64,000 nt of DNA from a bacterium (lineage in GTDB: Bacteria; Pseudomonadota; Gammaproteobacteria; GCA-002705445; GCA-002716945). Positions 41,192 to 58,679 of this stretch are shown here, piece by piece. Under the pieces are notes generated by a model. The model did no database searches and was not told the DNA's origin. It worked only from the letters and a program-made list of their open reading frames with translations. Within the stretch, counting starts at the first letter, position 1. Each line of letters starts with the position of its first letter. The stretch lies in NCBI GenBank assembly GCA_029979505.1, contig JAPOHH010000006.1, positions 1,237 through 65,236 of the forward strand, read 5' to 3'. The position numbers and the translations under genes were made by a program.

Positions 41192-41548
41192 TTAATTTAA
41201 CTCGTGAGTAGTATTACTATCTAAAGATTCATCTGGTTTTTTATAATCAGGGTCATTAGGGTTTATAAAAATAAACTGCTTATCATTACTATCTAGTTCA
41301 ACATAGTCAAGCTTAGTATTTTTAAGATTAATCATAGAATTTGGGTCAATTAGTATATTTATACCGTTTATCTTCAATTGTAAATCTTCTTCTTTAGATT
41401 GATCAAATCCCATAAGATAGTTAAACTTCCCATTATCATCTACACTTAGGGATATACGTAAAGGCCAATCTGAGCTTTCAGAAATTTCTGATGCTTTTTT
41501 AATTTGCTTCGCTGCTTGATCTGTTATTTCAAAAATTTGTTGTACCAT
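41192..41548 (-). CDS. dsrR: IscA/HesB-like protein DsrR (no Cys)
   Basis: IscA-like ITDQAAKQI..YLMGFD..FIFINPN without Fe-S Cys; last gene of dsr operon. Confidence 0.8.
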   Translation of the reverse strand: MVQQIFEITDQAAKQIKKASEISESSDWPLRISLSVDDNGKFNYLMGFDQSKEEDLQLKINGINILIDPNSMINLKNTKLDYVELDSNDKQFIFINPNDPDYKKPDESLDSNTTHELN

Positions 41549-42893
41549 TAACTTTCTCTACGAATTTAATAAAATACTCTACCCAATTAAACGCATCTGT
41601 TGATCTAAGATGAGAAAATGATGCGACAGTATTTTTATAGATTAAACCATCTACTTTTCCATTTATACCATAGCCTCTTTTTATATCAAATGCATAATTG
41701 TAATTCTTTTTTCCGTTTACTAAAGAGGAATAGTGAAATTCATGAGCATGTATCTTGCTATTTTTAATTCCCCATGGATGAGATTGAGGTTGTAATACAG
41801 TATAACCTCTACCAATCGGTTTATCATTCATATTAATATCAATATCAAATACATTACACATTTTATTCATATTATTTTCATATTTTAATCTTTTACACAG
41901 ATACATTAGTCCACCGCATTCTGCATAAACAGGTAAATTATCTTCAATTAGTTTTTTTATAAACTTTCTCATATTAATATTGGACTCGAGTTTCTTTGCT
42001 TCAGTTTCAGGAAAGCCTCCTCCTATAAATAGGGCATTAATTTTTGGCAAACTTTTATCTTTTATGAGATTGATGAATTTTACTTTGTGACCTAATGCAC
42101 GAATATTTTCGAGATCATCCTCATAATAGAAACCAAATGCAGAATCCTTAGCGACTCCAATCGTCATACTATGCTTGTTTTTTAATGGAATTTTATGTGG
42201 CGAAACTTTTATTGTTTCATTTTTATGTTTTGGATATATTTTTTTATAATCAATATTATTTTTAATCATTGTTGTAAGATTTCTAATTATTTTTCCTTTA
42301 TTAGGATGTTGGAATGCTGGTATTAATCCTAAATGTCTTTCATTAATCATGTTCTTAATTAGAGGTATTGACCCAATAATTTTAAGATTTGTATATTCTT
42401 TCACTGCTGATATAAGTTTTATTTCATGCCTAGATGTGGAAACATTATTAAGGATAATATTCTTAATTTTTAACTTTTCATCAAATTTACTATAACCTAA
42501 CAATAATGGAGCAATTCCACGCGTCATGCCGTTACAATCAATAACTAAAATTATTTCTACATTTAGTATCTTTGCCATTTCAGCATTACTATCTTGACCT
42601 GAAGTAGATACACCATCAAACAGCCCTTTTGTTCCTTCTATCAATGAAAAATCAATATTTCTTGATTTATTACGATAATTTAATAACAACTCTTTATTAT
42701 TCATTGTGTTGAAATCTAGATTATAACAAGGCGTTTTTGAAGCTGCTGCTAACCACGACGGATCTATAAAATCAGGACCTTTTTTAAATGTTTGTGTTGT
42801 ATATCCAAGTTCCCTGGCTAGTCCAGCTAAACCAATTGATACAATTGTTTTGCCAGATGACTTTTTTGTCGATGATATCAGAGTAGATTTCAT
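41529..42893 (-). CDS. dsrN: Siroheme amidase DsrN (CbiA-like)
   Basis: SSGKT, KKGPDFID, IEGTKGLFDG, YAECGGLMYL, HEFHYS; after dsrP. Confidence 0.88.
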   Translation of the reverse strand: MKSTLISSTKKSSGKTIVSIGLAGLARELGYTTQTFKKGPDFIDPSWLAAASKTPCYNLDFNTMNNKELLLNYRNKSRNIDFSLIEGTKGLFDGVSTSGQDSNAEMAKILNVEIILVIDCNGMTRGIAPLLLGYSKFDEKLKIKNIILNNVSTSRHEIKLISAVKEYTNLKIIGSIPLIKNMINERHLGLIPAFQHPNKGKIIRNLTTMIKNNIDYKKIYPKHKNETIKVSPHKIPLKNKHSMTIGVAKDSAFGFYYEDDLENIRALGHKVKFINLIKDKSLPKINALFIGGGFPETEAKKLESNINMRKFIKKLIEDNLPVYAECGGLMYLCKRLKYENNMNKMCNVFDIDINMNDKPIGRGYTVLQPQSHPWGIKNSKIHAHEFHYSSLVNGKKNYNYAFDIKRGYGINGKVDGLIYKNTVASFSHLRSTDAFNWVEYFIKFVEKVNGTTNF

Positions 42894-42907
42894 TTAAATA
42901 GTATGTG

Positions 42908-44080
42908 CTATTTTTTTGCAGGTATAAATTTCAAATTGGTTATTAATATTAGTATGATAATCAATGCTAGAGATGTACCACCAATACCAAGCCCAAACTC
43001 ATAAATAGATGGAGTATATCCATGTATATTATTATCAAAGAATGATGATTCAATAATAGTATGATCAGGAAATATATTGAGAGGAAATGCTTGGCCACCA
43101 ATAATAATAACTGCTACAGCAAAGAAGCCGCCTACTATTACCATTATAGATGTTAACGTTAAGGGGAAATCTCTATTGTCTTTATTAGTTAATTCAAAAA
43201 ACAGTGGAATTAATAAACCAAAACCAACCTGGCCTAACCAAAACATAGTTGTATAACCACCGCCATCGAGCAGTATAAATTTTTCTATAGCAATCTGCTT
43301 GGATATATATAAATTGGTTATATGGTATAAGATAAGAAAATAGATGTTAGCTAGTAAAAATATTATTATTAGTTTACGTATATTGACGGTAATTTCTGAC
43401 GGGATAGTTATGTTTTGCATTTTCGATATTATTCGTAATAATAAATAAAATACCGCTGTGCCATATAATAGTGACATTATTATAAATAAAGGAGCTAAAA
43501 CTGCTGTAGAATAAGCTTCCCTTGCAACAAGAAAACCAAATATTGATCCAGTACCTGTGGTCAATATAATTCTCCATCCAAAGGCAAGTTTACCAACTAC
43601 TGATGAAAATTTACTTACATTGAAGTCCAGCATAGTCCAAATATATATAGATAAGATTACAAAAAAACCTGAGTACAAAAAGATATTCCAAGCAAATATT
43701 GACTTAAAATTATAAGTTGTCATTGCAACTATTAACCTGTCTGGTCTTCCCAAATCAAGGACTAATATAATCAACCCAGAAACTAGAAAAGCTATTGCGA
43801 AAAGAGCAGACAATGGCGCTAGTGGCTTATATAGTTTTTTATCAAATGCAGACGACATAGATGCTATATTAAGAACACCGGATGCTATGACTATTAATGT
43901 TACTGCAAATATATGAGGTAAGCCCCATACAATCTGATTATTCATTCCGGTTACATAGTGACCTTCATGTTCCATGTAAGCTGATGATGCCAATCCAAGT
44001 AATACAAGAAATCCTAAAAAAAGGAAAGTTCCCCAATACAGATATCTACATGTTTTAAGTTTTTCTAGAGTATAGTTCAT
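42908..44080 (-). CDS. dsrP: NrfD/PsrC-type membrane subunit DsrP
   Basis: VTGMNNQIVWG, LDLGRPDRL, polytopic; after dsrO. Confidence 0.92.
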   Translation of the reverse strand: MNYTLEKLKTCRYLYWGTFLFLGFLVLLGLASSAYMEHEGHYVTGMNNQIVWGLPHIFAVTLIVIASGVLNIASMSSAFDKKLYKPLAPLSALFAIAFLVSGLIILVLDLGRPDRLIVAMTTYNFKSIFAWNIFLYSGFFVILSIYIWTMLDFNVSKFSSVVGKLAFGWRIILTTGTGSIFGFLVAREAYSTAVLAPLFIIMSLLYGTAVFYLLLRIISKMQNITIPSEITVNIRKLIIIFLLANIYFLILYHITNLYISKQIAIEKFILLDGGGYTTMFWLGQVGFGLLIPLFFELTNKDNRDFPLTLTSIMVIVGGFFAVAVIIIGGQAFPLNIFPDHTIIESSFFDNNIHGYTPSIYEFGLGIGGTSLALIIILILITNLKFIPAKK

Positions 44081-44805
44081 ATATTTGAATAAAAGACTTT
44101 TTGGTCAAGATTTAGATCGTTCCTAAGCCTTCTGGGATTATTAGAATTCATGGCTAATGATATTTTACTGTTTTTATCATTTAAATCTCCAAATGTAATA
44201 GCAGAGTGTCCTAAATTATTACAAGCATCCTCACACGCAGTTGTTTCTGATCCATGATCAATTCTGTTAACACATAAATTGCAACTCTCAACACAGCCCT
44301 TACCTCTAGGCGCATTTGTATTTTGTTGTGTTAGTGTTTCATGGACAAAAGAACGAGCCTTAAAAGGACAAGCCATCATACAATATCTGCAACCGATACA
44401 TGTATGTTGATTCACCATTACTATACCGTCTATTCTTTTAAATGAAGCACCTGTTGGACAAACATCGCAGCATGGTGGGTTTTCACAATGCTGACACATT
44501 AGAGGCATGGTGGTAATTTTATCAGTAGTGTTACTTTTGACTGTAACTTTTCGTATCCATTGTGAATCAGTTTCTGGTCTTCCAAAACCTGTTAAACCAT
44601 TTTCTTCATTACATGCATCTACACATGCAGTACATCCGTCTATACATTTTGATGTGTCTATGTGAATACCCCAACTTTGTTTATCTGATACTTTTTCTGC
44701 TAGTGGTTTTTTAGCATGTGCTTTATTCGAGATTATAGATGGCACGACAAAAGTTATAGCTAAAGCAGTAGCAGATTTCACAAGAAATTTTCTTCTATTT
44801 ATCAT
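44077..44805 (-). CDS. dsrO: Periplasmic ferredoxin DsrO
   Basis: Tat RRKFL; CIDGCTACVDAC, CQHCENPPCCDVCP, CIGCRYCMMACP. Confidence 0.93.
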   Translation of the reverse strand: MINRRKFLVKSATALAITFVVPSIISNKAHAKKPLAEKVSDKQSWGIHIDTSKCIDGCTACVDACNEENGLTGFGRPETDSQWIRKVTVKSNTTDKITTMPLMCQHCENPPCCDVCPTGASFKRIDGIVMVNQHTCIGCRYCMMACPFKARSFVHETLTQQNTNAPRGKGCVESCNLCVNRIDHGSETTACEDACNNLGHSAITFGDLNDKNSKISLAMNSNNPRRLRNDLNLDQKVFYSNI

Positions 44806-45247
44806 ATGTAATGTTATTAGCTAATTCATTTATTTCTTTAACAGAACTACTAGTTATATTTTTATGTTTAGGATAACGAGGTTCTGCAGCATGACATGAA
44901 AAACATGTGATATTTGTAGCTGTTTTTACATGGCATTCCTGGCAAAATTGTCCTTCAGCATTAATAGGTATTGCTTTACCTTGATTATCATATGAAACAT
45001 GACAATCTACACAATTTGCTAAACTATGCTGTTTTGTCCTTACACCATCTATTACAGTTTCATCTCTTTGATGCAGTAAGAACATATAATGCTCTTTTCG
45101 CATTAGATCAGTTGGTTCAACACATGCTTCTTGAGAATCTGCTTTAGACTTCCCTGGAGATACATGTGGATTACCATCATGCGCTTCTACGCCGAGTATA
45201 CCTGCCATTAAGATAAATATCAGAAAAGATATTTTGAGGTGTTTCAA
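44795..45247 (-). CDS. dsrJ: Triheme cytochrome c DsrJ
   Basis: CVDCH, CQECH, CFSCH; CVEP..MRKEH..LLHQRD. Confidence 0.9.
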   Translation of the reverse strand: MKHLKISFLIFILMAGILGVEAHDGNPHVSPGKSKADSQEACVEPTDLMRKEHYMFLLHQRDETVIDGVRTKQHSLANCVDCHVSYDNQGKAIPINAEGQFCQECHVKTATNITCFSCHAAEPRYPKHKNITSSSVKEINELANNITYDK

Positions 45248-45277
45248 TTATTTTCCCCTGATTAAAAGGCGAGTTTT

Positions 45278-47251
45278 TTATTCGCCGAGCCCCATTTTAA
45301 TATAACCAGTTGGACATACATCAGCACAAATATGACAGCCAATACATTTGTTGTAATCTGTATCTACATACCTGCCTAATGTTGCTTCGTCTTTTTTAAC
45401 TCTGAAGACAGCATCTTGTGGGCAGTAAATTACACAATTATCACATTCAAAACACATGCCACAACTCATACATCTAGAAGCCTCCTTAATTGCCTCTTCT
45501 TCTGTAAGTCCTATTATTCTATCTTTGTAATTATCAATGACCTCATCTCCACTAGGTACATCCTCTCCACGTTTAAGTCTATCTTCGTGTTTAAAATGAC
45601 CTAAGAATAATTCAGTTGATGGAATAATTTCTTGTGCAGAACGGTCTTCATAATTATGCAACACATTCTTGCTTGTATCTGAGCCTCTGTATAAATCAGG
45701 GTCTATAGGTGCTGTATAAGGCTCTGGCTCTAAATCAGTTTCTCTCAATTTATCTAGAAGATTAAAATGATGTACATCAACTTTTGGTCTCCTTTTAAAA
45801 TCATTATTTTCGAAATAGCTTTTGATTGTTTGCGAGACTATAGATCCTTGCCCTATCGCTGTTGTGAGTAAGTGTGGTCTGATAATATCACCTGCAACAA
45901 AATGACCTTCTTTTGTTTTATGTCTGTAATAATCGTCGACTTCAAAAAACCCTCTTTCATTACCAAGCTCATCTATACCTTCAATGTCAGGTGACTGACC
46001 AATAGCAGCTACAATCAAGTCAGCTTCAATTCTTTTCTCAGTCCCTTCTACAGGAACTGGAATATTATTTTCATCAAATGTGCATTCTGCAACAATCATC
46101 GCTACTGCTTTGTTATCGTCATTTTTTTCAATTTTAACTGGCATAACACCATTAAGAATTGTTACTCCTTCGTGCATAGCGTCATTTACCTCTTGCTCTG
46201 CAGCAGTCATTTCTTCTTTAGCAAACAATGATGTCAAGGTAACATCTGCACCTTCTTTCGCAGCAGATTCTGATACATCTTGAGCTACATAACCATGAAC
46301 AATGTTTTCTGGAGTATCTTGTTCATTCATTTTAGAGATGTGGCCTAGACGTCGTGCGACTGAGACTACATCAATAGATGTATCTCCACCTCCAACGCAA
46401 ATTACTTTTTTTGAACCCACCTTAAGTCTTCCATCACAAAATGCTTCAAGGAAGTCTACACCTGTTATGCAATTGGTAGCGTCACCACCTTCTACAGGTA
46501 TTGCTTTCCCGTTCCAGCATCCTATTGTCCAAAGAACTGCATCATGAGATTTCTCTATATCATCTAAAGGTAAATCTTTTCCAACACGCTTTCCTAATAC
46601 AACTTCGATATCTCCTAAATTTAAGATTCGTTCTATTTCTTTATCAAGTAAATCTCTAGGAGTTCTGTATCCAGGGATACCGTAGCGCATCATACCTCCA
46701 AGTTCTTTTCTTTCTTCAAAGACTGTTGAGGCGTAACCCATTTTTCTTAGTTGATAAGCTGCAGATAAACCTGCAGGTCCACCACCTATTATCGCTACTC
46801 TCTCTTTATTAAGTTTAGGTGCTTCATCAAATGAATAACCTTCTTCAATAGCTTTATCGCCTATGAATTGCTCAACGGCATTAATTCCTACATAATCATC
46901 AACTTCATTTCTATTACATCCACTCTGGCAAGGTGCGGGGCATACTCTACCCATTTGTGACGGAAACGGATTAGCTGTTGTAGATCTTCTAAATGCATAT
47001 TCTGACATTGACATGTCTTGTGGTGGTTGCTCTATACCTTTTATAATTTGAAGCCATCCTCGGATGTCTTCACCAGAAGGACAGCTACCTTGGCATGGTG
47101 GAGTTTTATGGACATAAGTCGGACATTTATGAGAATGGTCCTGCTCAAAGATTGCCTCTGAGAAATCACTATATGTATGATCTCCCTCATTATACCTTTT
47201 ATAGGTATTTTCCTCTTTCATCAAGTTGATTGTCTTTTCTAATTTAGTCAT
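45278..47251 (-). CDS. dsrL: Iron-sulfur flavoprotein DsrL
   Basis: PPCQGSCP, GGGPAG, GGGDT, C-terminal 2x[4Fe-4S] (CMSCGMCFECDNC; CIGCHICADVCP); TSLF where NADPH types have YRR suggests NADH type. Confidence 0.93.
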   Translation of the reverse strand: MTKLEKTINLMKEENTYKRYNEGDHTYSDFSEAIFEQDHSHKCPTYVHKTPPCQGSCPSGEDIRGWLQIIKGIEQPPQDMSMSEYAFRRSTTANPFPSQMGRVCPAPCQSGCNRNEVDDYVGINAVEQFIGDKAIEEGYSFDEAPKLNKERVAIIGGGPAGLSAAYQLRKMGYASTVFEERKELGGMMRYGIPGYRTPRDLLDKEIERILNLGDIEVVLGKRVGKDLPLDDIEKSHDAVLWTIGCWNGKAIPVEGGDATNCITGVDFLEAFCDGRLKVGSKKVICVGGGDTSIDVVSVARRLGHISKMNEQDTPENIVHGYVAQDVSESAAKEGADVTLTSLFAKEEMTAAEQEVNDAMHEGVTILNGVMPVKIEKNDDNKAVAMIVAECTFDENNIPVPVEGTEKRIEADLIVAAIGQSPDIEGIDELGNERGFFEVDDYYRHKTKEGHFVAGDIIRPHLLTTAIGQGSIVSQTIKSYFENNDFKRRPKVDVHHFNLLDKLRETDLEPEPYTAPIDPDLYRGSDTSKNVLHNYEDRSAQEIIPSTELFLGHFKHEDRLKRGEDVPSGDEVIDNYKDRIIGLTEEEAIKEASRCMSCGMCFECDNCVIYCPQDAVFRVKKDEATLGRYVDTDYNKCIGCHICADVCPTGYIKMGLGE

Positions 47252-47275
47252 TTAATTCATCACTTTATATAAGTT

Positions 47276-47293
47276 TATTATACTTTTCTAATA
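47276..47293. promoter_or_regulatory. Candidate operator, TATTAG-N6-CTAATA palindrome copy (internal dsr promoter region)
   Basis: TATTATACTTTTCTAATA, 25 nt upstream of dsrL in the 78-nt dsrK-dsrL gap. Confidence 0.5.
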
Positions 47294-47329
47294 CATCAAT
47301 TTTAAAAGTATAGCATAAGATTTTTTGAG

Positions 47330-48829
47330 CTAAACCTCTTTTTTGTTCATTATTATTGCATTACTTACTAGCTGATGAAGGCTAACAATTTGGTCTAATT
47401 CCAGATCATAGTATTGAAATACCTTACTAAATTGACTCTTACAAATTGCACATATAGCTGCCATGTGCGTGACGCCTTTCTCATCAATTAGTTGTTTTAA
47501 AGCTTCCATTCTAGGTAGTGCACCCTTTACTCTTAATTCCATCAAATCATCAGTCAGTAGGCCACCACCGCCACCACAGCAGTATGTTTTCTCTCTGATT
47601 GTCTCCTCATCCATATCGTAAAAGTTATTAACAACAGTTTTGATGATTTTTCTGGGTATAGTAAATTGTCCCCCCATTACTCCTCCCATATTTGAAGCAC
47701 GAGCAACATTACAAGAGTCATGATAAGTTAGTGTCATGTCATCATTTGCGCTTTTATCAAACTGTAGGACATTTTGATCAATTAATGAATTAGTGATTTC
47801 ACAGATATGTTGAGGCACTGGATACCTTGGATCTAGGAAATCGAAAGGACCAGCTAAAGTATTTAAAAAGCTATATGCTACTCTCCATGCATGACCACAC
47901 TCACCAAATACAATCCTTTTTACATTAAGCTCTAATGCTGCTTCTCTAATCCTCATAGCAAGTTTTTTCATGTTGTCGTAACTTCCTATAAACATTCCAA
48001 AATTTGCAGCTTCACTAGCATGCGAACTTAGCGTCCAGCTTATTCCTGCTTGGTGAAACACTTTCGCATAGCCTATAAGCCCGTCAACATGTGGTTCGGC
48101 AAAAAAATCTGCAGATGGAGTTACAAGAAGAACTTCTGAATCTTTTACATCTAATGGAAATTTAACATCAACTTCGATATCATCAAGAACATCCTCTTCT
48201 AAGCCTTCAAGTGTATCTGCAAGTGCAGGTTCTGGTAAACCGAGATTATTTCCAATTTTATGAACTTTACTAATTATTTCGTTACAATATTTTTGACCAA
48301 CACCAATAGAATCCATGACTTCTCTTGCTGCCATTGAAACCTCAGCAGTATCAATACCAATAGGACAAAAAACTGCGCACCTTCTGCATTGAGAGCATTG
48401 ATGATAGTAAGAATACCAGTCAGCTAGAACTTCTTTTGTTAAATCCTTTGCACCAACAAGTTTTGGAAAGTACTTTCCTGGTAATGTAAAATATCTTCTG
48501 TACACACTTCGCATTAGATTCTGTCTGCCTACAGGCATATTTTTTGGGTCTTTAGTTCCTTGGTAATAGTGACACTTATCTGTGCATGCGCCACACTGTA
48601 TACAAGAGTCTAAATAAACTCTAAGTGATCTGTATTTGCCTAACAAATCACCCATCTTATCGATAGCTTTTTCTTGCCAGTTATCTACTAATTCTCCAGG
48701 GTAACCAAGACTTGTCTGAAATTCCTCTTTTGATTTAAATGGAGACAGGTGTGCAGTAGCACTATTTTCCAATTTTGGAATAACAGGGAAAGTCCTTACT
48801 TCAGGTGTTTCAAATGTGTTTTTAGCCAT
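47330..48829 (-). CDS. dsrK: DsrK (HdrD-like)
   Basis: CIQCGACTDKC, CSQCRRCAVFCP, GECGH, YHDSC, CCGGGGG, CAIC. Confidence 0.95.
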   Translation of the reverse strand: MAKNTFETPEVRTFPVIPKLENSATAHLSPFKSKEEFQTSLGYPGELVDNWQEKAIDKMGDLLGKYRSLRVYLDSCIQCGACTDKCHYYQGTKDPKNMPVGRQNLMRSVYRRYFTLPGKYFPKLVGAKDLTKEVLADWYSYYHQCSQCRRCAVFCPIGIDTAEVSMAAREVMDSIGVGQKYCNEIISKVHKIGNNLGLPEPALADTLEGLEEDVLDDIEVDVKFPLDVKDSEVLLVTPSADFFAEPHVDGLIGYAKVFHQAGISWTLSSHASEAANFGMFIGSYDNMKKLAMRIREAALELNVKRIVFGECGHAWRVAYSFLNTLAGPFDFLDPRYPVPQHICEITNSLIDQNVLQFDKSANDDMTLTYHDSCNVARASNMGGVMGGQFTIPRKIIKTVVNNFYDMDEETIREKTYCCGGGGGLLTDDLMELRVKGALPRMEALKQLIDEKGVTHMAAICAICKSQFSKVFQYYDLELDQIVSLHQLVSNAIIMNKKEV

Positions 48830-49564
48830 TTATTTACTCTCCATTTTTTTGGCCCACTCTGCCACATGTCTTTTGCTTCTTGCATTATCAACCTGATTTC
48901 TTGTAGGGCTGAAGAACAATCCAGGTGCATGTAATAGTTTACTGTAAGGAAAGATTATCATTAATGCAATGACCAAAGATAGATGAATCAACAAAACTGT
49001 ATCACTTGGTAGTTCAGAAAAATTAAAGGATAACAATCCAGTAAAAAAAAGTTTAATTGCTAGGATATCTGATGGATACCATTTCATTAAAAGACCGGAA
49101 CCAGCTATTGCAATAATTAGAATCAGAATTAAATAATCAGATGGTGAAGAGATATACCTAACTCTATCAACGAATACACGTCTTGCAAATAAACCTAATA
49201 AGCCTGCCAACATAAGATATGCTGCATAATGCCCAGCAACTTGCACTAATTCAAAAGAAACCCAAAACCACACTGGGTCGGTAAAATATTTCAAATGTCT
49301 AAATGCAGCTAATAGAAGTGCTAGGTGGAAGATCCAACTAAAGAGCCATGTCCATTTAGTTGCAGAGAAAAGACTTTCAAAAAAAACAACTTCTCGAAAT
49401 ATTCTAATAGCCACACCTTTTTGAGTCATTGGTGCTGGTGGTGTAGGTATTTTTAGAGGTGCAGGTATGGTTGAGTACTCATATATTCTATAGGCCAACC
49501 CAATAAACAATATTGCAGCAGCGAAGTAGAACAACGCTGCATACAATATAGTTACAAATGACAT
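48830..49564 (-). CDS. dsrM: Membrane cytochrome b DsrM
   Basis: FHLAL, RHL, IHL, FPYSKLLHAPG. Confidence 0.92.
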   Translation of the reverse strand: MSFVTILYAALFYFAAAILFIGLAYRIYEYSTIPAPLKIPTPPAPMTQKGVAIRIFREVVFFESLFSATKWTWLFSWIFHLALLLAAFRHLKYFTDPVWFWVSFELVQVAGHYAAYLMLAGLLGLFARRVFVDRVRYISSPSDYLILILIIAIAGSGLLMKWYPSDILAIKLFFTGLLSFNFSELPSDTVLLIHLSLVIALMIIFPYSKLLHAPGLFFSPTRNQVDNARSKRHVAEWAKKMESK

Positions 49565-49591
49565 TGGCTATCCCTGACCTTGTGATTATTA

Positions 49592-49924
49592 TTATACGCA
49601 ACCAGTTGGTTTAGGAAGACCTGCAAATTTACATGCTTGTTTGCCTGGACCATATGGGAATAGTTCGTATAGATACTTACTGTTTCCTTTTTCTTTACCA
49701 AGTTTTTTACCAACAGCTTTTGTAAGCACTCTTACTGCTGGTGCTATTTGATATTCTTCGTAATATTCACGCAGGAAGTTAATTATTTCCCAGTGATCAT
49801 CACCTAGTTCAATGTCATCTTCCTTTGCCATTACTGTAGCAATATCTTTTTCCCAATCATTTAGATTGGACAGATATCCTTCTTCATCTACTTCTATTTG
49901 TCTGCCATTTACTTCTAATGCCAT
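49592..49924 (-). CDS. dsrC: DsrC with both C-terminal cysteines
   Basis: YELFPYGPGKQACKFAGLPKPTGCV. Confidence 0.96.
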   Translation of the reverse strand: MALEVNGRQIEVDEEGYLSNLNDWEKDIATVMAKEDDIELGDDHWEIINFLREYYEEYQIAPAVRVLTKAVGKKLGKEKGNSKYLYELFPYGPGKQACKFAGLPKPTGCV

Positions 49925-49944
49925 TTTCTTCTCCTAAATTAAGA

Positions 49945-50247
49945 TTAAAGCCAATTTTGTGTTTTTTCATTATCCGCTACTAATTTAACGAAACCTTTAT
50001 AATCCACTATTTCTATATTAGTAGTAAGATTAGAATTATCAAGTCCTCTTGCTTCTAAATCAGGTCCTAAAACATAGAACTTTATATCTCCCTGATGATC
50101 GTGTATATCTTTTTCAAACTGAGTACCTTTAGTGCAGGCATAAACAGCATCCTCAATAAAAAGTATAGATGCTCCTTTTTGAGCATATCGTAAACAGGTG
50201 GTTAAGCTGTCTTTTTCAAATGGTGATTTATTAATTGTATGTAACAT
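49945..50247 (-). CDS. dsrH: Sulfurtransferase subunit DsrH
   Basis: MLHTINKSPF, FIEDAVY, DLEARG. Confidence 0.93.
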   Translation of the reverse strand: MLHTINKSPFEKDSLTTCLRYAQKGASILFIEDAVYACTKGTQFEKDIHDHQGDIKFYVLGPDLEARGLDNSNLTTNIEIVDYKGFVKLVADNEKTQNWL

Positions 50248-50627
50248 TAGAAATTAAAAAATACCTCTGATTCATTGAATAAATTTTTTAAGTCTGATGC
50301 AGGCAATATTTCTACATCAACAGATAAGTCCTCTTCGCTTAGACCTCTTGCTTCTAAAGACTCTTTTTCAACATACAATTTCTCTACATCATACATATCA
50401 AGTGCGCCAAATGTCTTACTAAAGTTTTTAGTGGCAATTCCATCAGTATTTTGTCCTTTTTTTAGCTGATAAACACCATCATCTATAAATGCTAAAGCTA
50501 CATCTTGTTCAAAAGCAGCAGCAATTAGTACTACCTCTAAAGCTTCATGAGCATATATTGTTCCATGAGGAGCTTTCCTGTTTACGTAAATAAATTTTTT
50601 AATTATGCCTGATTCTTGTTCTTCCAT
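50247..50627 (-). CDS. dsrF: Sulfurtransferase subunit DsrF
   Basis: RKAPHGTIYAHEALE, FIDDGVYQL, SLEARGL; start set at 50627. Confidence 0.93.
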   Translation of the reverse strand: MEEQESGIIKKFIYVNRKAPHGTIYAHEALEVVLIAAAFEQDVALAFIDDGVYQLKKGQNTDGIATKNFSKTFGALDMYDVEKLYVEKESLEARGLSEEDLSVDVEILPASDLKNLFNESEVFFNF

Positions 50628-50628
50628 A

Positions 50629-51021
50629 TCAATCACCAAATGTAATCATGCGATCAGCTTGTATACCAGCCTCGATAAGTTGTCCTAAGCCTGAAATTCT
50701 AAATTTGTCCGCAATATTATTTGCATCTTTTTTATTACGTTCCATTTCACCTTGATCTACCATTCCGCGTCTTTGTGCAGCTGCTACACAAAGAACTAAG
50801 TCTAGGTTATGTTTTTCAGCTAATTCAGTCCATCTGTTTGGTATGTGACGGTCATCTTGAGGTGGAGTTGCTAGACGAGTTCCATTATTAACGCCATCAT
50901 GATAGAAGAATACACGATATATTTCATGTCCTTCAGCTATTGCAGCCTCTATAAATTTATAAGCTGAATCAGATGCTTGATGCTGATAGGGGCCTTCATT
51001 GATTAAAACTCCAAACTTCAT
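50629..51021 (-). CDS. dsrE: Sulfurtransferase subunit DsrE
   Basis: GPYQHQAS, FFYHDGV, active Cys in LCVAAAQRRG, SGLGQL. Confidence 0.95.
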   Translation of the reverse strand: MKFGVLINEGPYQHQASDSAYKFIEAAIAEGHEIYRVFFYHDGVNNGTRLATPPQDDRHIPNRWTELAEKHNLDLVLCVAAAQRRGMVDQGEMERNKKDANNIADKFRISGLGQLIEAGIQADRMITFGD

Positions 51022-51033
51022 AAACTGTTTGTA

Positions 51034-52119
51034 CTAAAAACGTACGTAAGCTGATGAGTTAAGTGTTTTTCTTCCACCGCGCCAGTTATCAATATGATAC
51101 TTAGTAAACGGTAGCTCTGTGAGTTCAAAGAATCTAGGCCATCCAATTCTCTCTATCCAATCGTTTATGCGCTCCCAGTCTCTGGCGTCTTCTTTGTATG
51201 CAGAAAGGATTCGCTTAACAATAGCTGTTGCTTCAGGCCATCTTGGTGGATTGTTAGGAATACCAGCAGCTACAAGTTTTTGAAATGATGGTTTGCTTCT
51301 TGCATTAGAGTGATTACCACCAACCCAAATAGCTAGTTTACTGTGCTCCGGATCATTAATTTGCATAGGAGGGCATGGTGGAAAACATGCGCCACAACAT
51401 ATACATTTTTTTTCATCAACTTCTAATGATGGTTTACCGTTAACCATAGCAGGTCGAATCGCAGCTACAGGACAACGAGCCACAACAGATGGTCTCTCAC
51501 ATACGTTTGATACTAAATCATGATTAATTTTGGGTGGTTTTGTATGTTGGATGTTAATAGCAATGTCACCTTGGCCACCGCAGTTAATTTGACAACAAGA
51601 TGTGGTTAAATGAACTCTATTTGGCATTTCATTGTTTCTAAACTCGTCGATAAGTTCATCCATCATTGCTTTTACTACACCAGATGCATCTGTACCTGGA
51701 ATATCACAATGCAGCCATCCTTGTGTATGAGATATCATTGCAACCGAATTCTTTGTGCCTCCTACGATAAAGCCTTCTTTCTCAAGCGCTTCAATCAAAG
51801 GCTCAACTTTAGATTTATCTTTTACCATGTATTCAATATTGCTTCTGATAGTAAATCGTACATAACCATCTGCATATTCGTCGCCTATGTCACATAGTGT
51901 TCTAAGTGTAAATACATCTAATATTCTTTGAGTACCTGCTCGAACAGTCCAAATTTCCTCACCACTGTTAGCGTAATGTACTAGTACACCTGGTCTTGGA
52001 TGTTCATGATATTTCCATTGACCAAAATTTTTACGCATCGTTGGATGCATATACTGAAATCCATCCGGTGCACCTGTTTCAATTGGTGTTCTCATTTCTT
52101 TTTTTGCATTTTCACTCAT
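51034..52119 (-). CDS. dsrB: Reverse dissimilatory sulfite reductase beta subunit
   Basis: HTQGWLHCDIPGTDASG, TSCCQINCG, CICCGAC, WERINDWIERIGW. Confidence 0.97.
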   Translation of the reverse strand: MSENAKKEMRTPIETGAPDGFQYMHPTMRKNFGQWKYHEHPRPGVLVHYANSGEEIWTVRAGTQRILDVFTLRTLCDIGDEYADGYVRFTIRSNIEYMVKDKSKVEPLIEALEKEGFIVGGTKNSVAMISHTQGWLHCDIPGTDASGVVKAMMDELIDEFRNNEMPNRVHLTTSCCQINCGGQGDIAINIQHTKPPKINHDLVSNVCERPSVVARCPVAAIRPAMVNGKPSLEVDEKKCICCGACFPPCPPMQINDPEHSKLAIWVGGNHSNARSKPSFQKLVAAGIPNNPPRWPEATAIVKRILSAYKEDARDWERINDWIERIGWPRFFELTELPFTKYHIDNWRGGRKTLNSSAYVRF

Positions 52120-53372
52120 TATGCTGAATCCTTTTTCTTATCGGCTTTTTCATACCATTTTACTGCTTCATCATCCCAGTCATCTGTTCTTACATAAGAA
52201 CTTTCCCTTGGATTAGCTACCATATTTGGATCTACATCTATGCCAATACCTTCAAGGAAATTAACTAGTCCAATCCTTTCAATCATTTCACCGCATCTTT
52301 CATGCTCTAATGCATTATCTGCCCAGAAATCTATAGTTTCCTCAGCGATTTCCACAAGTCTTTCCCAATCTTCCTCTTTTTCAAGTTTCATGAATGGAAC
52401 AATAACTGTACCCATTAAATCACCAATCTTAAGTGTCCTTTTTCCACCAATGAGAATAGTCACGCCTTTATCATCACCTGGATGAAGTGCTTTAGGAACA
52501 ACGTTCAGACAGTGCATACATTTAACACAATTTTGATTATCAATATCAATTGAATCATCATCGTTAAGTGATATGGCATTAGTAGGACATCTTGTAACAA
52601 TGTTATCAATAACATATTTACGACCTTTCATTTCTACATATTTTTTGAATTCTTCTTGATCAACCTTGATATTATCTCTCCATGTACCTATGACAGACAT
52701 ATCTGCTCTTTCAATAGAGTTCATGCAATCATTTGGACATCCTGATACTTTAAATTTGAATTTATATGGTAGTGCTGGTCTATGCATATCATCCATGAAG
52801 TTATTTACGAGCAATCTGTGCGCTTTATGTTCATTTACATTAGACATTTCACATCTACCTGCGCCGACACATGACATTGCAGTTCTAACACAAGGTCCGG
52901 CACCGCCTAAGTCCCAGCCTTTTTCATTGATATCATCAAAGAAGTGTTGTGTTGATTCTGTTGTAGATCCGATGAACATTATGTTACCTGTTTGCCCATG
53001 GAATGTTACTAGACCAGAGCCATGCTTTTCCCATGAATCAGCTAAGTCACGCAGTGATTCTGTTGTGTAATAGTTTCCAGCAGGTGGCTGCACTCTTAAT
53101 GTATGAAATTCTTTTGATTTAGGGAAAGCATCACCAACTTCAGAAAATCTAGGTATAATACCACCACCATAACCGTAGACACTGACAGTACCACCTTTCC
53201 AATATCCTTTACGCGTTTCATAAGAATGCTCAAGTTGACCTAAAAGGTCATTTGTCATTTCATTAATTCTTTTCTCAGGATGAGTATCTCTGAGTCTTTT
53301 TATTCCGCTGATGAAACTCGGCCATGGGCCATTCTCTAGCTCATCAATCATAGGTGTATCATGTTTTTTCAC
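52119..53372 (-). CDS. dsrA: Reverse dissimilatory sulfite reductase alpha subunit
   Basis: TPMIDELENGPWPSF, EFHTLRVQPP, CVRTAMSC..GCPNDC siroheme motif; GTG start. Confidence 0.97.
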   Translation of the reverse strand: MKKHDTPMIDELENGPWPSFISGIKRLRDTHPEKRINEMTNDLLGQLEHSYETRKGYWKGGTVSVYGYGGGIIPRFSEVGDAFPKSKEFHTLRVQPPAGNYYTTESLRDLADSWEKHGSGLVTFHGQTGNIMFIGSTTESTQHFFDDINEKGWDLGGAGPCVRTAMSCVGAGRCEMSNVNEHKAHRLLVNNFMDDMHRPALPYKFKFKVSGCPNDCMNSIERADMSVIGTWRDNIKVDQEEFKKYVEMKGRKYVIDNIVTRCPTNAISLNDDDSIDIDNQNCVKCMHCLNVVPKALHPGDDKGVTILIGGKRTLKIGDLMGTVIVPFMKLEKEEDWERLVEIAEETIDFWADNALEHERCGEMIERIGLVNFLEGIGIDVDPNMVANPRESSYVRTDDWDDEAVKWYEKADKKKDSA

Positions 53373-53415
53373 AATTTATCCCCTGAAATCCGTTGGTATA
53401 CAATGTATATTATTT

Positions 53416-53433
53416 TATCATTAGTTTCTAATA
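53416..53433. promoter_or_regulatory. Candidate operator, TATTAG-N6-CTAATA palindrome copy
   Basis: TATCATTAGTTTCTAATA in the divergent dsrA / tauD-like intergenic region, 44 nt upstream of dsrA. Confidence 0.45.
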
Positions 53434-53516
53434 TGTCCATGAGAAGTTAATATTGCACCGATATGAAATAAAAAACAAGTGTTAAAATTCACTATGAAAG
53501 TCCATTATATAGAATC

Positions 53517-54347
53517 ATGATATTAAGCGCAAAATCAAAGGATTTCATTGAATGGGCAGCTAATAAAGAGCTGAATATCCCTTTAAATATTAATGATTTG
53601 AAGGTTAATTTGCGTGATATTAACCATGTTTCAAAGACTGAAATATCTCAAATCAAAGAGAAGTTAACAAAATTCAATTGTTGTATATACATATCAGACA
53701 GTAATCTTAAGGAAGACGATAATATTATGAAATTTGCAATGTCTCTAGGTATGAGAACATTCGATTCTCATAATATAGACGATAGTAACATTAGCACGAT
53801 TTCAGCAGATAAAACTGAGAATAATATTAGATATATACCGTATACGAATAAAGCATTAAATTGGCACACAGATGGGTACTATGATAGTAAACCAATTTTT
53901 TCATGGTTACTTCACTGTGTCGAACCAGCATCATCAGGTGGAGAAAACTTCTTATTAGATCATGAGCTTGCAATCAGAGAATATATACTTAAGCATGATG
54001 ATATTTCATGCTTAATGAGTAATAACGCATTTTCTATTCCTAAAGATAAAGTTGCTGAACGGGAAGTTACTTCGAATTATGTTTGTGATGTAAATAATGA
54101 GTATAAAAAGTTACATATGAATTTCTCAATGAGAAAGGAAAATATTAAAATTAACAAGAATTCAAAATCTGCTGTGTCAAAATTGATAAAAATCATAAAA
54201 GAGGATTGTAAAAAATATCATTTAACCTATAAACTTTCGAAAAGTGAAGGTATTGTTAGTAATAATATATTACATGGAAGAAATTCATTTAAAGACGGTC
54301 CAACTATGAGAAAAATTCTTAGAATAAGATCCCACGAGAGATTGTAG
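53517..54347 (+). CDS. TauD/TfdA-like 2-oxoglutarate-Fe(II) dioxygenase family protein
   Basis: LNWHTDGYY (HxD), LLHC..GGEN, NNILHGR. Confidence 0.78.
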   Translation: MILSAKSKDFIEWAANKELNIPLNINDLKVNLRDINHVSKTEISQIKEKLTKFNCCIYISDSNLKEDDNIMKFAMSLGMRTFDSHNIDDSNISTISADKTENNIRYIPYTNKALNWHTDGYYDSKPIFSWLLHCVEPASSGGENFLLDHELAIREYILKHDDISCLMSNNAFSIPKDKVAEREVTSNYVCDVNNEYKKLHMNFSMRKENIKINKNSKSAVSKLIKIIKEDCKKYHLTYKLSKSEGIVSNNILHGRNSFKDGPTMRKILRIRSHERL

Positions 54348-54541
54348 TGTTATACCTGAGCGCAATATTAATAGAAAGAAAAGATGTAGAAACATTTGAA
54401 GATTTTCTTGAAGTGATCAAAGAGAAAGCTGCAAGTGGTGAGCGCTTCATCAGGTTTGACCTGAAACCTCCATTTCCAGATACACCATCAAATTGGGAAG
54501 ATCGCGTTGAAAGTGCATTTAGTGGTTATATAAAAAAATAA
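54347..54541 (+). CDS. Small conserved protein of sulfur oxidizers, unknown function
   Basis: DLKPPFPDTPSNWEDRVESAF motif recalled from dsr-associated small proteins; coupled to neighbours. Confidence 0.65.
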   Translation: MLYLSAILIERKDVETFEDFLEVIKEKAASGERFIRFDLKPPFPDTPSNWEDRVESAFSGYIKK

Positions 54542-54543
54542 CT

Positions 54544-55221
54544 ATGTGGCAGGAAAAGACAGAAAAAAAATCAATTGCAGAACAATCAGAAATGATTGAC
54601 CTTTCATTTTCAGTTAATTGCAAAGAACTTCCTTATGACCATGCATATGAACTTTCCTCTGAAATTATCAATCTTATACCTGATATTGTGAATGATAAAA
54701 GAAACGCAATTCAAACGCTTCATGGTCCAATGTCTGGTAATGGATGGGTAAGAGCAGATGGAGAAAATATTTTTTTATCAAAAAGAGCCAAGCTTTGTTT
54801 AAGAGTAAATAAATTACAAGTTGATAAAATACGAAACATAGAAGGTAAAAAAATTAAATTGTTCGGCAATGACCTTAGTATAGGTAAGTCGAAGACTAAA
54901 GTATTCTTAGTTGTTAGAGATCTGTTCTGTAGATTCGTCTCATGCCAGGAAGACCTACCTGAAGATATATTTTTAGAACAGGTTCAAAAAGAATTAGGAG
55001 CACATAATGTTCATATCAATAAAGCATTATGTGGACAATCTAAAAGAATCATATTTGGTGATGAAACTTTGCATACGAGGTCTTTAATGATAGCTGATTT
55101 GTCAAAAGAGGAGTCAATTAGGTTACAAGAAGAGGGTGTTGGTGGTCAAAGATTATATGGCTGTGGAATTTTTCTACCTCATAAATCAATAGACGCAGTT
55201 AGTAACTTCAAAGAGGACTAA
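54544..55221 (+). CDS. Stand-alone Cas6/Cmx6-like RAMP protein
   Basis: LPYDHAY N-terminal His motif; C-terminal Gly-rich loop GVGGQRLYGCGIFLP; no other cas genes or array in window. Confidence 0.75.
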   Translation: MWQEKTEKKSIAEQSEMIDLSFSVNCKELPYDHAYELSSEIINLIPDIVNDKRNAIQTLHGPMSGNGWVRADGENIFLSKRAKLCLRVNKLQVDKIRNIEGKKIKLFGNDLSIGKSKTKVFLVVRDLFCRFVSCQEDLPEDIFLEQVQKELGAHNVHINKALCGQSKRIIFGDETLHTRSLMIADLSKEESIRLQEEGVGGQRLYGCGIFLPHKSIDAVSNFKED

Positions 55222-55260
55222 TATTTACCTAATTACCAACTAGACTTATAGTTATTAGTA

Positions 55261-55278
55261 TATTAGAATTTTCCAATA
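55261..55278. promoter_or_regulatory. Candidate operator, TATTAG-N6-CTAATA palindrome copy
   Basis: TATTAGAATTTTCCAATA, 29 nt upstream of the DsrC paralog; 15/18 identical to the dsrL copy. Confidence 0.5.
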
Positions 55279-55306
55279 TTGATGAAATCTTTATGGAGTT
55301 TTATGT

Positions 55307-55645
55307 ATGAAAGTTGAAGTTAATGGAAATGAAGTCTCTACAACGGAAACTGGTTTTTTAGTTAATATTGAGGACTGGACTGAGGATGTTGCTCAGGTTA
55401 TAGCATCTCAAGAAGGTATAGTCCTTGAACAGAGGCACTGGGATGTAATTAATTATTTAAGAGATGAATTTATAAATAATAAAGAAAATCAACCAAATAC
55501 TAGAAATATGATTAAAGACATGGGAAAGTTATGGGGGGAAAAGATTGACTCAAAAACATTATTTGACTTATTCCCTGGTAATCCAAGTAAACAAGCTGGG
55601 AGAATAGGCGGTTTGCCTGAGAGTAGGAGAAAAGGTGGATACTAA
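55307..55645 (+). CDS. DsrC/TusE family paralog with no cysteine (RspA-type)
   Basis: TETGFLVNIEDW, HWDVINYLR, LFP..PSKQA..GGLP fold motifs; ends ESRRKGGY. Confidence 0.85.
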   Translation: MKVEVNGNEVSTTETGFLVNIEDWTEDVAQVIASQEGIVLEQRHWDVINYLRDEFINNKENQPNTRNMIKDMGKLWGEKIDSKTLFDLFPGNPSKQAGRIGGLPESRRKGGY

Positions 55646-55878
55646 TGACTGATGCTAAAAACGAAAAAGAATTGCAAGAAGAGAGAAAACAGATAATCAC
55701 TCGCCTCTTGGAAATACAAAAAAATTTTATGGAACTTGAAAGAGAGAAAGGTGTTACTGAAAAAGACATACACCATAATCCAAAAGGTGTAATCAAAGAA
55801 TATAAAGAAGAGCATGAAAAATTAGCGAACAGACTAGTAGATATTGCTCATCAAATTAAGGGGTCGATAAGAACATAA
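55645..55878 (+). CDS. Small hypothetical helical protein
   Basis: Coupled (TAATG overlap); LVDIAHQIKGS C-terminus. Confidence 0.65.
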   Translation: MTDAKNEKELQEERKQIITRLLEIQKNFMELEREKGVTEKDIHHNPKGVIKEYKEEHEKLANRLVDIAHQIKGSIRT

Positions 55879-56072
55879 TGAACCAAGAATATTTTGATAA
55901 AGTAACAGAATTGGAAAAAATGAATGCTAATGATCAATACGTTTTAGGATGGCAAGAGGGCTATCAAGGTGCACCTGAAGTCGAAGAACAACGTATAACA
56001 GACGCATATAGTGCAGGCTACGAAGACGGAAAAAATAATAATTTCGAAAACGTCGATAAATTCAAAGGCTAG
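55878..56072 (+). CDS. Probable Alvin_2107-family sulfur-oxidation protein
   Basis: YVLGWQEGY..EEQRITDAYSAGYEDG pattern recalled for this family; coupled to upstream gene. Confidence 0.6.
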   Translation: MNQEYFDKVTELEKMNANDQYVLGWQEGYQGAPEVEEQRITDAYSAGYEDGKNNNFENVDKFKG

Positions 56073-56073
56073 A

Positions 56074-56637
56074 TTAAGTCTTTGTAACAGAATCGTAAAC
56101 TTCTAATATCTTTTTTAATATTTCTACTGAATCAATATCAATAATTTGATCCATAACCCATTTATTAGTTTGACTATAGCCCATTACATCTTGACACTTT
56201 TTTGATAAGTGTCTGTAAAGCGAGTAGTTGCTTCCTTTTCTTGAAAATTCAAATTCTGAATATTCTGATGACCGTAAATTAAGTGTATTTATATATCCGC
56301 TCTTATAATCACCTGGTCCAAATAAGTCCTCGCAATTTTCTTGCATTATCCTCGAGGATTGTTTCCCTAGAGAGTTCATAACTTCTGATCGTAATTGATT
56401 ATCAGCATTATCTTCAAATAGTAATCTGTCAACTAAGTGAACTTGAAAGGACATGTACTCCACGATAATTGATACTCTTTGATGGTCATTTTTATATTCA
56501 AAATCTTCACCATGCAGTGTCTTTGCCTTATCTAAAGAAAGCCTCCAGGAAATATATGAAAGCGCACTTCCAAAGTCCTCTGGAGTTTTGCTTCTTTTTA
56601 CCGTTTTTGACCACTTGCTTTTAATTCTTATTGCCAT
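56074..56637 (-). CDS. Conserved hypothetical protein
   Basis: MAIRIKSKW start; long ORF filling the gap; start set at 56637. Confidence 0.65.
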   Translation of the reverse strand: MAIRIKSKWSKTVKRSKTPEDFGSALSYISWRLSLDKAKTLHGEDFEYKNDHQRVSIIVEYMSFQVHLVDRLLFEDNADNQLRSEVMNSLGKQSSRIMQENCEDLFGPGDYKSGYINTLNLRSSEYSEFEFSRKGSNYSLYRHLSKKCQDVMGYSQTNKWVMDQIIDIDSVEILKKILEVYDSVTKT

Positions 56638-56677
56638 AATATTCAGATGATAACATTTACAATGTAATATAAATAAT

Positions 56678-57277
56678 ATGAGTAATAAAATTAAAATAGA
56701 AAAAAGATTAATTGAAAGTGCACCCGGTAGTTTCATTTATGAATTTGACAATGAGATTTCTCCCCAAAAGTGTAATGAAATTATAGAAAGATTTGAGCAA
56801 TCTAAAGATGATCACTATAGAGGAAGAGTTGGACCAAATTTTGAACAAAATGATACAGTAAAAAAATCAACAGATATGGTAATTAGTGGAAAAGATTCAT
56901 GGAAAGATATAGATGAGCTATTTTTTGTAAGCTTGTCAAAGGCATTATCTAAAATGAAAAAAGAATTTGATTACTTTAACGGAAAATTTAAAGACATTGG
57001 ATACGCGATTCAAAGAACTGATGAAGGAGAATATTTTCATTGGCACATTGATACTGGAAGTCATCAAATGAGTGATAGACAACTTGTAGCTATATGGTAC
57101 CTGAACGATGTTGAAGGCCCTGGTGGTGAAACAGAGTTCCTACATCAAAAAGTTAAAATTAAACCACAACAAGGAAAGCTTATAATCTTTCCACCGTTTT
57201 GGACGCATGAGCATCGTGGTGTTACACTTAAACGAGGTTCGAAATATATCGCAACAACATGGATAGTCTTTAAATGA
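56678..57277 (+). CDS. 2OG-Fe(II) oxygenase (prolyl-4-hydroxylase-like)
   Basis: FHWHID (HxD), WYLND..GGET.F, FPPFWTHEHRG, KYIATTW. Confidence 0.88.
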   Translation: MSNKIKIEKRLIESAPGSFIYEFDNEISPQKCNEIIERFEQSKDDHYRGRVGPNFEQNDTVKKSTDMVISGKDSWKDIDELFFVSLSKALSKMKKEFDYFNGKFKDIGYAIQRTDEGEYFHWHIDTGSHQMSDRQLVAIWYLNDVEGPGGETEFLHQKVKIKPQQGKLIIFPPFWTHEHRGVTLKRGSKYIATTWIVFK

Positions 57278-58380: not shown

Positions 58381-58679
58381 TTATCACTTTATGTTCTAAA
58401 GATGATTTTAACGAGAATAATATGCTGGAAATTATTCATGAAAATCATTCTTACCTAGTGGCAAAAGTTAATGAAGACTACTTTGCTGTAGATAATATGT
58501 GCAGTCATGAGAATTCAGAACTAATTCTAGGGTGTCTTAAAGATAAAACTATAAAGTGTTCATTGCATGGCAGTTACTTTGATTTAGAAACAGGTAAAGC
58601 TCTTAACGAACCTGCAGATGAACCAATAAAGACCTACCCAACTATAATTAAAAATAATAACATTTGTATAGAAATATAA
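58377..58679 (+). CDS. Rieske [2Fe-2S] ferredoxin
   Basis: CSH..CSLHGSYFD Rieske ligands. Confidence 0.88.
   Translation: MIITLCSKDDFNENNMLEIIHENHSYLVAKVNEDYFAVDNMCSHENSELILGCLKDKTIKCSLHGSYFDLETGKALNEPADEPIKTYPTIIKNNNICIEI

Follow-up and report, generated by a model that had tools for sequence, protein, structure and literature searches.

Why does a gene for a Cas6-like protein stand beside the sulfur-oxidation genes of a bacterium in whose genome no CRISPR array can be found? Cas6 normally cuts CRISPR RNA. The oxidative Dsr system is the main bacterial route from stored sulfur to sulfite in oceans, sediments and symbioses, and decades of work on Allochromatium vinosum have dealt with its dsr gene set. 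The gene in question lies in a 64,000-nucleotide stretch of contig JAPOHH010000006.1 (GenBank assembly GCA_029979505.1), hereafter the window, from a marine, sulfur-oxidising gammaproteobacterium with a very small genome, of the family GCA-002716945. We found that it encodes a bona fide two-RRM (RAMP) protein of the Cas6/Cmx6 family, and that this protein, having left CRISPR–Cas, is now fixed as an accessory of the oxidative Dsr (rDsrAB) system. We consider it very probable that it serves sulfur oxidation and not immunity.

The family assignment is supported by both sequence and predicted structure. The protein matched the Pfam Cas6 profile PF09559 over profile positions 1–191 of 191 (E = 3.2e-53; 181 bits against a cut-off of 26.7) and scored 119.8 bits against NCBIfam TIGR02807 (cas6_cmx6, the Cas6/Cmx6 of type I-MYXAN), for which the curated cut-off is 98.85. 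A phmmer search of PDB sequences returned a sole match, 8fcj_B, the Cas6 of a type I-B CRISPR-associated transposon (CAST; E = 5e-7). An AlphaFold2 model built from an alignment of 78 orthologues had a predicted local distance difference test score (pLDDT) of 88.6 and a predicted template modelling score (pTM) of 0.85. Its top Foldseek matches were 8fcu_B and 8fcj_B (E = 3e-15; template modelling score 0.76–0.80; root mean square deviation 2.3 Å), followed by Pyrococcus furiosus Cas6 and Cas6e/Cse3, with a further 40+ Cas6 or Cas6e chains at E ≤ 1e-3. The model and these matches establish computationally the RAMP fold of two tandem RRM/ferredoxin-like domains. The initial annotation, made from the letters of the DNA without database searches, had proposed a 225-residue open reading frame, a Gly-rich loop (GVGGQRLYGCGIF) and an N-terminal DH motif; the frame was reproduced to the nucleotide and to the residue, the loop falls at residues 198–210 and the motif is D32-H33. 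The likeness that it saw to type I-MYXAN Cas6/Cmx6 is borne out by both hidden Markov model (HMM) profiles and by the fold, and the profile and Foldseek comparison with Cas6 that it suggested found the RAMP fold in place.

A Cas6 would ordinarily be expected to serve an array. The source assembly (917 kb in 15 contigs, about 31% G+C) contained no CRISPR array in a k-mer scan for spaced repeats, a search that responded to a positive control, the 21-repeat array beside the Cas6 of a relative, genome G057. HMMs for Cas1, Cas5 and Cas7/DevR had no match in the six-frame translation of the genome, although the controls responded, and 17 type I-MYXAN Cas3, Cas8, Cas7, Cas5 and Cas4-1/2 proteins from three real loci gave no genome tblastn match better than E = 0.2. 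A cognate CRISPR–Cas system elsewhere in the genome was rejected on the basis of these three approaches together. The protein could still be an ordinary Cas6 serving such an array, or the decaying remnant of a lost CRISPR–Cas system, as the name given to the family by the annotation pipeline and an estimated completeness of just 90% for the assembly might suggest. However, Cas1 was absent from 37 of 37 genomes of the window's family, 30 of which carry the cas6-like gene, some of them 99–100% complete. The gene is also intact, single-copy, syntenic and strongly conserved in at least 587 genomes (those carrying the C-terminal signature of its clade in a pattern scan), and its clade is separate from the CRISPR-linked members of the family. 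We regard the ordinary or remnant Cas6 as effectively refuted.

The gene follows dsr. Among 61 relatives, all 33 genomes with DsrB above the cut-off carry it, as do 4 of the 28 without DsrB. Three of these four cases lie at contig ends of fragmentary family genomes, and the fourth is G057, which has a real type I-MYXAN locus comprising the 21-repeat array, a WYL regulator, Cas6, Cas3, Cas8b, Cas5 and Cas4/Cas1. DsrB is missing as well from all seven genomes of the family without the cas6-like gene, so the dsr region and the accessory operon seem to come or go together within the family. These seven are G008, G012, G021, G024, G028, G035 and G036, some of them 89–92% complete. The association extends to the whole class: in a survey of one genome per family (151 genomes, each at least 90% complete), 47 had both a Cas6-like protein and DsrB, 3 only the former, 1 only the latter and 100 neither (Fisher p = 3e-34, n = 151). 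Two of the three with a Cas6-like protein only hold dsrQ-linked modules of the same sulfur type at contig ends (one of which also keeps orf64a, introduced below), and the third is again G057. Both genes lay no more than about 6 kb apart on one contig in 37 of the 47 genomes.

To describe the surroundings of the gene, we fetched 80 loci, including those of Chromatiaceae, Thiothrix, Cocleimonas, Marithrix, Parabeggiatoa, Sedimenticola, Thiogranum, Acidiferrobacterales and Thiosymbion, and took each count only where the flank allowed the test. A divergent dsrA lay within 5 kb of the cas6-like gene in 53 of 60 species loci. Directly upstream, 67 of 73 loci had orf64a, which encodes a protein of 64 residues, and directly downstream, 60 of 75 had dsrC', a paralogue of dsrC; dsrQ was present in 42 of 60. 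The remaining observations of the initial annotation also held. It had placed the gene between sulfur genes, which are the dsr genes on the minus strand and DsrC-family and Alvin_2107-family genes on the plus strand, and its statement that repeats and cas genes are missing applies to the 64-kb window and to the whole 917-kb assembly. Of the checks that it had proposed, the genome-wide CRISPR search disclosed neither an array nor a cas locus, and the phylogenetic test for a dsr-linked, array-less clade recovered a separate clade with strict DsrB co-occurrence and conserved adjacency to dsr in dozens of families.

In that tree, of 148 sequences, one branch with Shimodaira–Hasegawa-like support of 99 parts 141 sulfur-type proteins from 7 CRISPR-linked Cmx6 proteins, namely that of G057 and those of six genes on cyanobacterial plasmids, annotated beside cas3. 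The sulfur-type protein is fixed beside dsrAB and not beside cas3 or cas8, with no array or cas partner, and the window protein is only 29–33% identical to the CRISPR-linked Cmx6 proteins. It nonetheless belongs to the same HMM family as the Cas6/Cmx6 of type I-MYXAN (I-B-like) CRISPR–Cas and of type I-B CAST, with the same two-RRM fold and Gly-rich loop, and it has core residues H33, R87, R130, E140 and Q195 in common with CRISPR-linked Cas6/Cmx6. Across 238 sulfur-type representatives, this core and the Gly-rich loop have been kept under purifying selection. Within the loop, G198, G200, G206, C207 and G208 are 89–99% conserved; of the 7 CRISPR-linked relatives, all have the glycines and 6 have C207. 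Position 33, at the start of helix 1 (in LPYDHAY), is His in 92% of sulfur-type sequences and in all 7 CRISPR-linked proteins. In full, the positions common to the sulfur-type and all, or nearly all, CRISPR-linked proteins are H33, L37, P46, G67, R87, R130, E140, F143, G164, Q195, the G198xG200...G206-C-G208 loop and F210.

Compared with CRISPR-linked Cmx6, the sulfur-type proteins add an acidic N-terminal tail (MxWxE), an NGWxR loop and a PHK tail. The residues specific to the sulfur clade are W2 in the acidic tail, the N66-G-W68-x-R70 loop, S79, R81, R179 and H213-K214, and the window protein has every signature residue of the clade (W2, N66-G-W68, R81, R179 and P212-H-K214). In the 238 sequences, N66, G67 and W68 are 93–99% conserved and R70 88%; the NGWxR loop is invariant in a 78-sequence alignment (A2) and absent from the CRISPR-linked relatives. 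It is also the only internal low-confidence stretch of the AlphaFold2 model (pLDDT 55–79 over residues 61–80). Because sulfur-type proteins pass the equivalog cut-off of TIGR02807, PGAP and RefSeq name them 'type I-MYXAN CRISPR-associated protein Cas6/Cmx6' in CRISPR-free genomes. With the window protein as the query, the sulfur-type signature was found in all of the best 150 of 805 clusters at 50% identity, counting clusters that cover the signature positions. The pipeline name thus inflates counts of CRISPR–Cas in sulfur oxidisers.

The closest companion of the cas6-like gene is orf64a. Its GTG start overlaps the stop codon of dsrQ, and the ATG of the cas6-like gene follows 2 nt past its own stop, so that dsrQ, orf64a and the cas6-like gene form one translationally coupled operon. 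The orf64a product is well conserved (ML.LSE...FFRMDVKPP(F/Y)PDTPE.WEDRLEAAF); it had no sequence match in Pfam, NCBIfam or the PDB, and its AlphaFold2 model (pLDDT 88) had no fold match in the PDB. The loci fall into two architectures. In the first, orf64a abuts the cas6-like gene; about 30 loci have it besides those of the window's family. In the second, found in about 43 loci and about half of the lineages, a helical protein of ~235 residues is encoded between the two. Because the helical protein occurs in only one architecture, the invariant core is orf64a plus the cas6-like gene. The helical protein is missing from the window's family; where present (for example, L022 8653-9360 and L066 7256-7981), its C-terminus has the invariant sequence ...DDWW(F/V)DR.... 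Neither it nor the orf64a product could be placed as a homologue of known structures or Cas subunits, as there was no sequence match in the PDB and none in Pfam. A single 290-residue candidate for an orf64a–Cas6-like fusion (P0150) was rejected, since its N-terminus is unlike orf64a and looks like a mis-called start. At one locus (L008, G005:C2), the end of the cas6-like gene is duplicated in the spacer that follows it, behind a stretch of N, probably a scaffolding artefact.

The second frequent companion, dsrC', starts after a spacer of 85 nt and encodes a cysteine-free DsrC paralogue. In 85 of 86 loci its C-terminus reads ...RKGGY, and both canonical cysteines (CysA and CysB) are replaced, whereas the canonical DsrC, from the last gene of dsrEFHC, has the C-terminus ...CxxxxxxxxxxGC(V/I) in 60 of 60. 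An invariant tip on a flexible arm indicates a specialised protein and not a decayed copy, and the sequence suggests that the Gly-Gly-Tyr tip may have a specific docking or modification role. Two 2-oxoglutarate/Fe(II) oxygenase-like genes occur in the same cluster as dsrC'.

An orthologue is found in the organism long used to study Dsr. In A. vinosum DSM 180, Alvin_1248 (annotated 'Cas6-related'), Alvin_1249 and Alvin_1250 adjoin dsrA (Alvin_1251) (PMC11267869). The A. palmeri locus has the order orf64a, helical gene, cas6-like gene, the same as in Alvin_1248–1250, and we infer the orthology of Alvin_1248 from this locus and from the annotation, not from the A. vinosum sequence. Allochromatium keeps the helical protein that the window's family has dropped and is without dsrQ and an adjacent DsrC'; in phototrophs of this kind dsrQ is missing, yet orf64a, the helical gene and the cas6-like gene remain. 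On elemental sulfur, Alvin_1248, Alvin_1249 and Alvin_1250 were up 12.5-, 6.3- and 17.7-fold (P = 0.002–0.009), and dsrA stood at 0.24-fold in the same column (PMC11267869, Table S2), which is a second-hand re-calculation from Weissgerber 2013 and, according to the text of that paper, relates to sulfide-grown controls. On pyrite, the three genes were unchanged (0.9–1.1) and dsrA was at 0.04 (PMC11267869). We read these data only as showing that the A. vinosum operon is expressed and responsive to the sulfur substrate, and that it does not simply follow dsrAB.

What, then, might a Cas6 fold do for sulfur oxidation? We favour, tentatively and with somewhat less than even confidence, specific binding and possibly cleavage of an RNA stem-loop in the post-transcriptional control of Dsr-related transcripts. 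The Cas6-like protein would recognise a specific stem-loop and stay bound to it, and may cut it by means of the retained His33 region. Together with the 64-residue orf64a product, it would form a post-transcriptional device that tunes the expression or stability of Dsr-related transcripts to the sulfur substrate, with the NGWxR loop, the acidic N-terminal tail and the PHK tail as possible surfaces for coupling to orf64a, the optional helical protein and DsrC'. The reason for favouring RNA recognition is that the family-wide core, including the surface His of helix 1 and the Gly-rich loop, remains more than 90% conserved long after the split from CRISPR. The wider proposal, in which a Cas6 endoribonuclease exapted from CRISPR immunity acts with its 64-residue partner to bind, and perhaps cleave, RNA that controls sulfur oxidation in most rDsr-type oxidisers, including abundant streamlined marine lineages and A. 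vinosum, is one we hold with more doubt.

Several observations weigh against RNA recognition. His33 is a candidate catalytic or RNA-contact residue on the basis of its conservation; however, the remaining ~8% of sulfur-type sequences mostly have Tyr, or else Asn or Cys, at this position, and His33 aligned to Asn in 8fcj_B, the solved CAST Cas6, so it may not be catalytic. Every conserved neighbour is a sulfur-trafficking protein and none belongs to RNA metabolism. The proteins have also changed in charge: the sulfur-type clade is near-neutral (median isoelectric point (pI) 6.2, 5–95% range 5.2–8.9; median net charge −3), whereas the 7 CRISPR-linked proteins are basic (pI 9.3–9.6; net charge +5 to +10). 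The window protein, with a pI of 6.6, lacks this strong basicity, which is a property of the seven CRISPR-linked members compared and no formal criterion of the family.

Nor did our searches reveal an RNA target. The repeats of two real Cmx6-linked arrays have a short GC stem followed by (C/G)TTRAG(A/C)AC, and no type I-MYXAN-like repeat hairpin (of the GCC-loop-GGC-TTRAGNAC type) was found in the genome, and nothing systematic in 90+ loci. No non-coding 10-mer around the module was shared across families, the top words lying in the coding sequence of genes absent from the window. In lineages with a long spacer before dsrC', an alignment made in search of a structured leader matched only a promoter and a Shine–Dalgarno sequence, the rest being variable and unstructured. 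Rfam had no match in the whole window, and a terminator and hairpin scan of 47000–58500 gave nothing associated with the operon; these negatives leave room for a target defined by structure only, or for one elsewhere in the genome.

The main rival to RNA recognition is a second use of the Cas6 fold, as a scaffold that binds proteins or ligands during sulfur trafficking, with no part for RNA. Such an adaptor might hold the C-terminal arm of DsrC' or DsrC, or bridge DsrEFH and DsrAB, with the orf64a product as a co-subunit. The loss of the strong positive charge of CRISPR-linked Cmx6 makes this non-RNA role a serious rival, and the acidic N-terminal extension (median net charge −4) points in the same direction, as do the negative RNA motif searches. 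Low predicted confidence in a clade-specific loop is typical of partner-induced fit, the gene is tightly coupled by translation and synteny to orf64a, the helical protein and DsrC', and the invariant RKGGY tail of DsrC' implies a specific docking partner. On the other hand, a protein that had given up RNA binding would hardly be expected to keep, above 90% and across so broad a clade, the residues in common with CRISPR-linked Cas6 (the helix-1 His, R87, R130, Q195 and the whole Gly-rich loop), and about 20% of loci, those of Chromatiaceae such as Allochromatium among them, have no DsrC' next to the gene. On balance, we judge an adaptor role unlikely, and less probable than the retained RNA recognition that we favour.

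Promoter sequences bear on one further alternative. The promoter-like site before dsrC' (TAGACT-17-TAGAAT) is overlapped at its −10 region by an AT-rich inverted repeat, the imperfect palindrome ATATTAGAATTTTCCAATAT (55259–55279). The promoter block is conserved across genera of the family while its flanks diverge, and it occurs once in the genome. Related palindromes (ATATT..AATAT, TAATATTA and CTAATATTAG) were found at the dsrC' −10 region in 19 of 71 lineages, against 1.4 expected from shuffles. In the 144-nt spacer between the divergent dsrA and dsrQ, ATATTA-N16-TAATAT (53404–53435) overlaps the −10 region of the dsrA promoter. From their sequences, the palindromes at the two promoters are a candidate shared operator. 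Another copy of the dsrC' palindrome, at C14:20866, was set aside, because a CitE-like/sucC operon follows it and the site resembles an ordinary promoter.

These sites would fit a role as a transcription-level regulator, in which the Cas6-like protein, by itself or jointly with DsrC', would bind at the dsrA/dsrQ and dsrC' promoters to either DNA or nascent RNA. Besides the enrichment of palindromes over shuffles, the response of the A. vinosum operon to sulfur substrate speaks for this, and Grimm et al. reportedly found A. vinosum DsrC bound to dsr promoter DNA. However, we know of no Cas6 that binds double-stranded DNA, a palindrome is more naturally the site of a helix-turn-helix protein, for example a DsrC-family protein, and the enrichment of an AT-rich motif over a −10 box may partly reflect the promoter itself. 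We therefore consider a direct regulator of transcription possible but weak, and improbable beside post-transcriptional RNA recognition.

The other genes of the locus agree with an oxidative Dsr region (Table 1). The minus-strand dsr operon is complete; in it, the DsrB match to TIGR02066 scored 549.6 bits, the dsrL-like gene encodes an NAD(P)-binding protein and the dsrN-like gene an amidase. According to Loffler et al. 2020 (PMC7596348), dsrQ was named by Lenk et al. 2012, and a tauD-like dsrQ divergent from dsrA is described for aerobic chemotrophic sulfur oxidisers; the window operon likewise starts with dsrQ divergent from dsrA. Past dsrC', synteny extends to orf77 and the Alvin_2107-family gene, both within the window's family and at many distant loci. 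Further downstream, a 368-residue TrpD-like protein (57274–58380) has weak, sub-threshold matches that include the DNA-binding family YbiB (TrpD2), and across the family, as well as in several distant genomes, its gene keeps synteny with the module. So do, alongside it, genes for a 2-oxoglutarate–Fe(II) oxygenase (56678–57277), a small Rieske protein (58377–58679) and a 220-residue protein of no family (56074–56736).

Table 1. Positions of the cas6-like gene, its motifs and the surrounding features in the window.
Feature	Position	Strand	Description
Divergent dsr operon	41192..53372	-	dsrABEFHCMK, dsrL-like, dsrJOP, dsrN-like, IscA-like dsrR; from open reading frames and family matches
dsrA promoter-like site	53412..53439	-	TGGACA-16-TAAAAT; inside the only conserved block of the dsrA–dsrQ spacer
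dsrQ	53517..54347	+	TauD-family Fe(II)/2-oxoglutarate dioxygenase-like; first gene of the operon; PF02668, E = 3e-12
orf64a	54347..54541	+	64 residues; near-universal upstream partner of the cas6-like gene
cas6-like gene	54544..55221	+	225 residues; sulfur-type clade of the Cas6/Cmx6 family; PF09559 and TIGR02807
D32-H33	54637..54642	+	Start of helix 1; His is a candidate catalytic or RNA-contact residue
NGWxR loop	54739..54753	+	N66-G67-W68-V69-R70; clade-specific
Gly-rich loop	55135..55173	+	GVGGQRLYGCGIF; residues 198–210
dsrC' promoter-like site	55241..55279	+	TAGACT-17-TAGAAT with overlapping palindrome; from promoter scan
dsrC'	55307..55645	+	Cysteine-free DsrC paralogue ending in RKGGY; PF04358, E = 2e-32
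orf77 and Alvin_2107-family gene	55645..56072	+	orf77, 77 residues, no family; 'globule sulfur oxidation' gene, NF049856, 81 bits (cut-off 60)

Parts of this picture were already known: the name dsrQ, the occurrence of Cas6 outside cas operons and the 'Cas6-related' annotation of Alvin_1248. Makarova et al. 2006 (PMC1462988) noted that genes of this Cas6 family often lie apart from cas operons, but made no link to sulfur and proposed no specific alternative context for such RAMP genes. PMC7596348 names dsrQ only, with no mention of the cas6-like gene, orf64a or the cysteine-free DsrC' (the word 'Cas6' occurs 0 times). A literature search found no paper that links a Cas6 homologue to dsr or assigns a function to this conserved operon. 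Added here are the two-gene core, the case of the streamlined genomes, the family-level contingency table, the charge shift, the clade signature and the A. vinosum expression data.

The operon has been retained even in genomes of about 0.9–1.1 Mb that have shed nearly everything dispensable. Whether the protein still handles RNA or has lost this ability is directly testable, because the orthologue Alvin_1248 adjoins dsrA in a genetically tractable organism. If RNA handling has been kept, the protein would clearly exemplify the domestication of a CRISPR component for housekeeping regulation, and would add a new layer of control to the sulfur cycle; if it has been lost, the RAMP fold would be doing something new.

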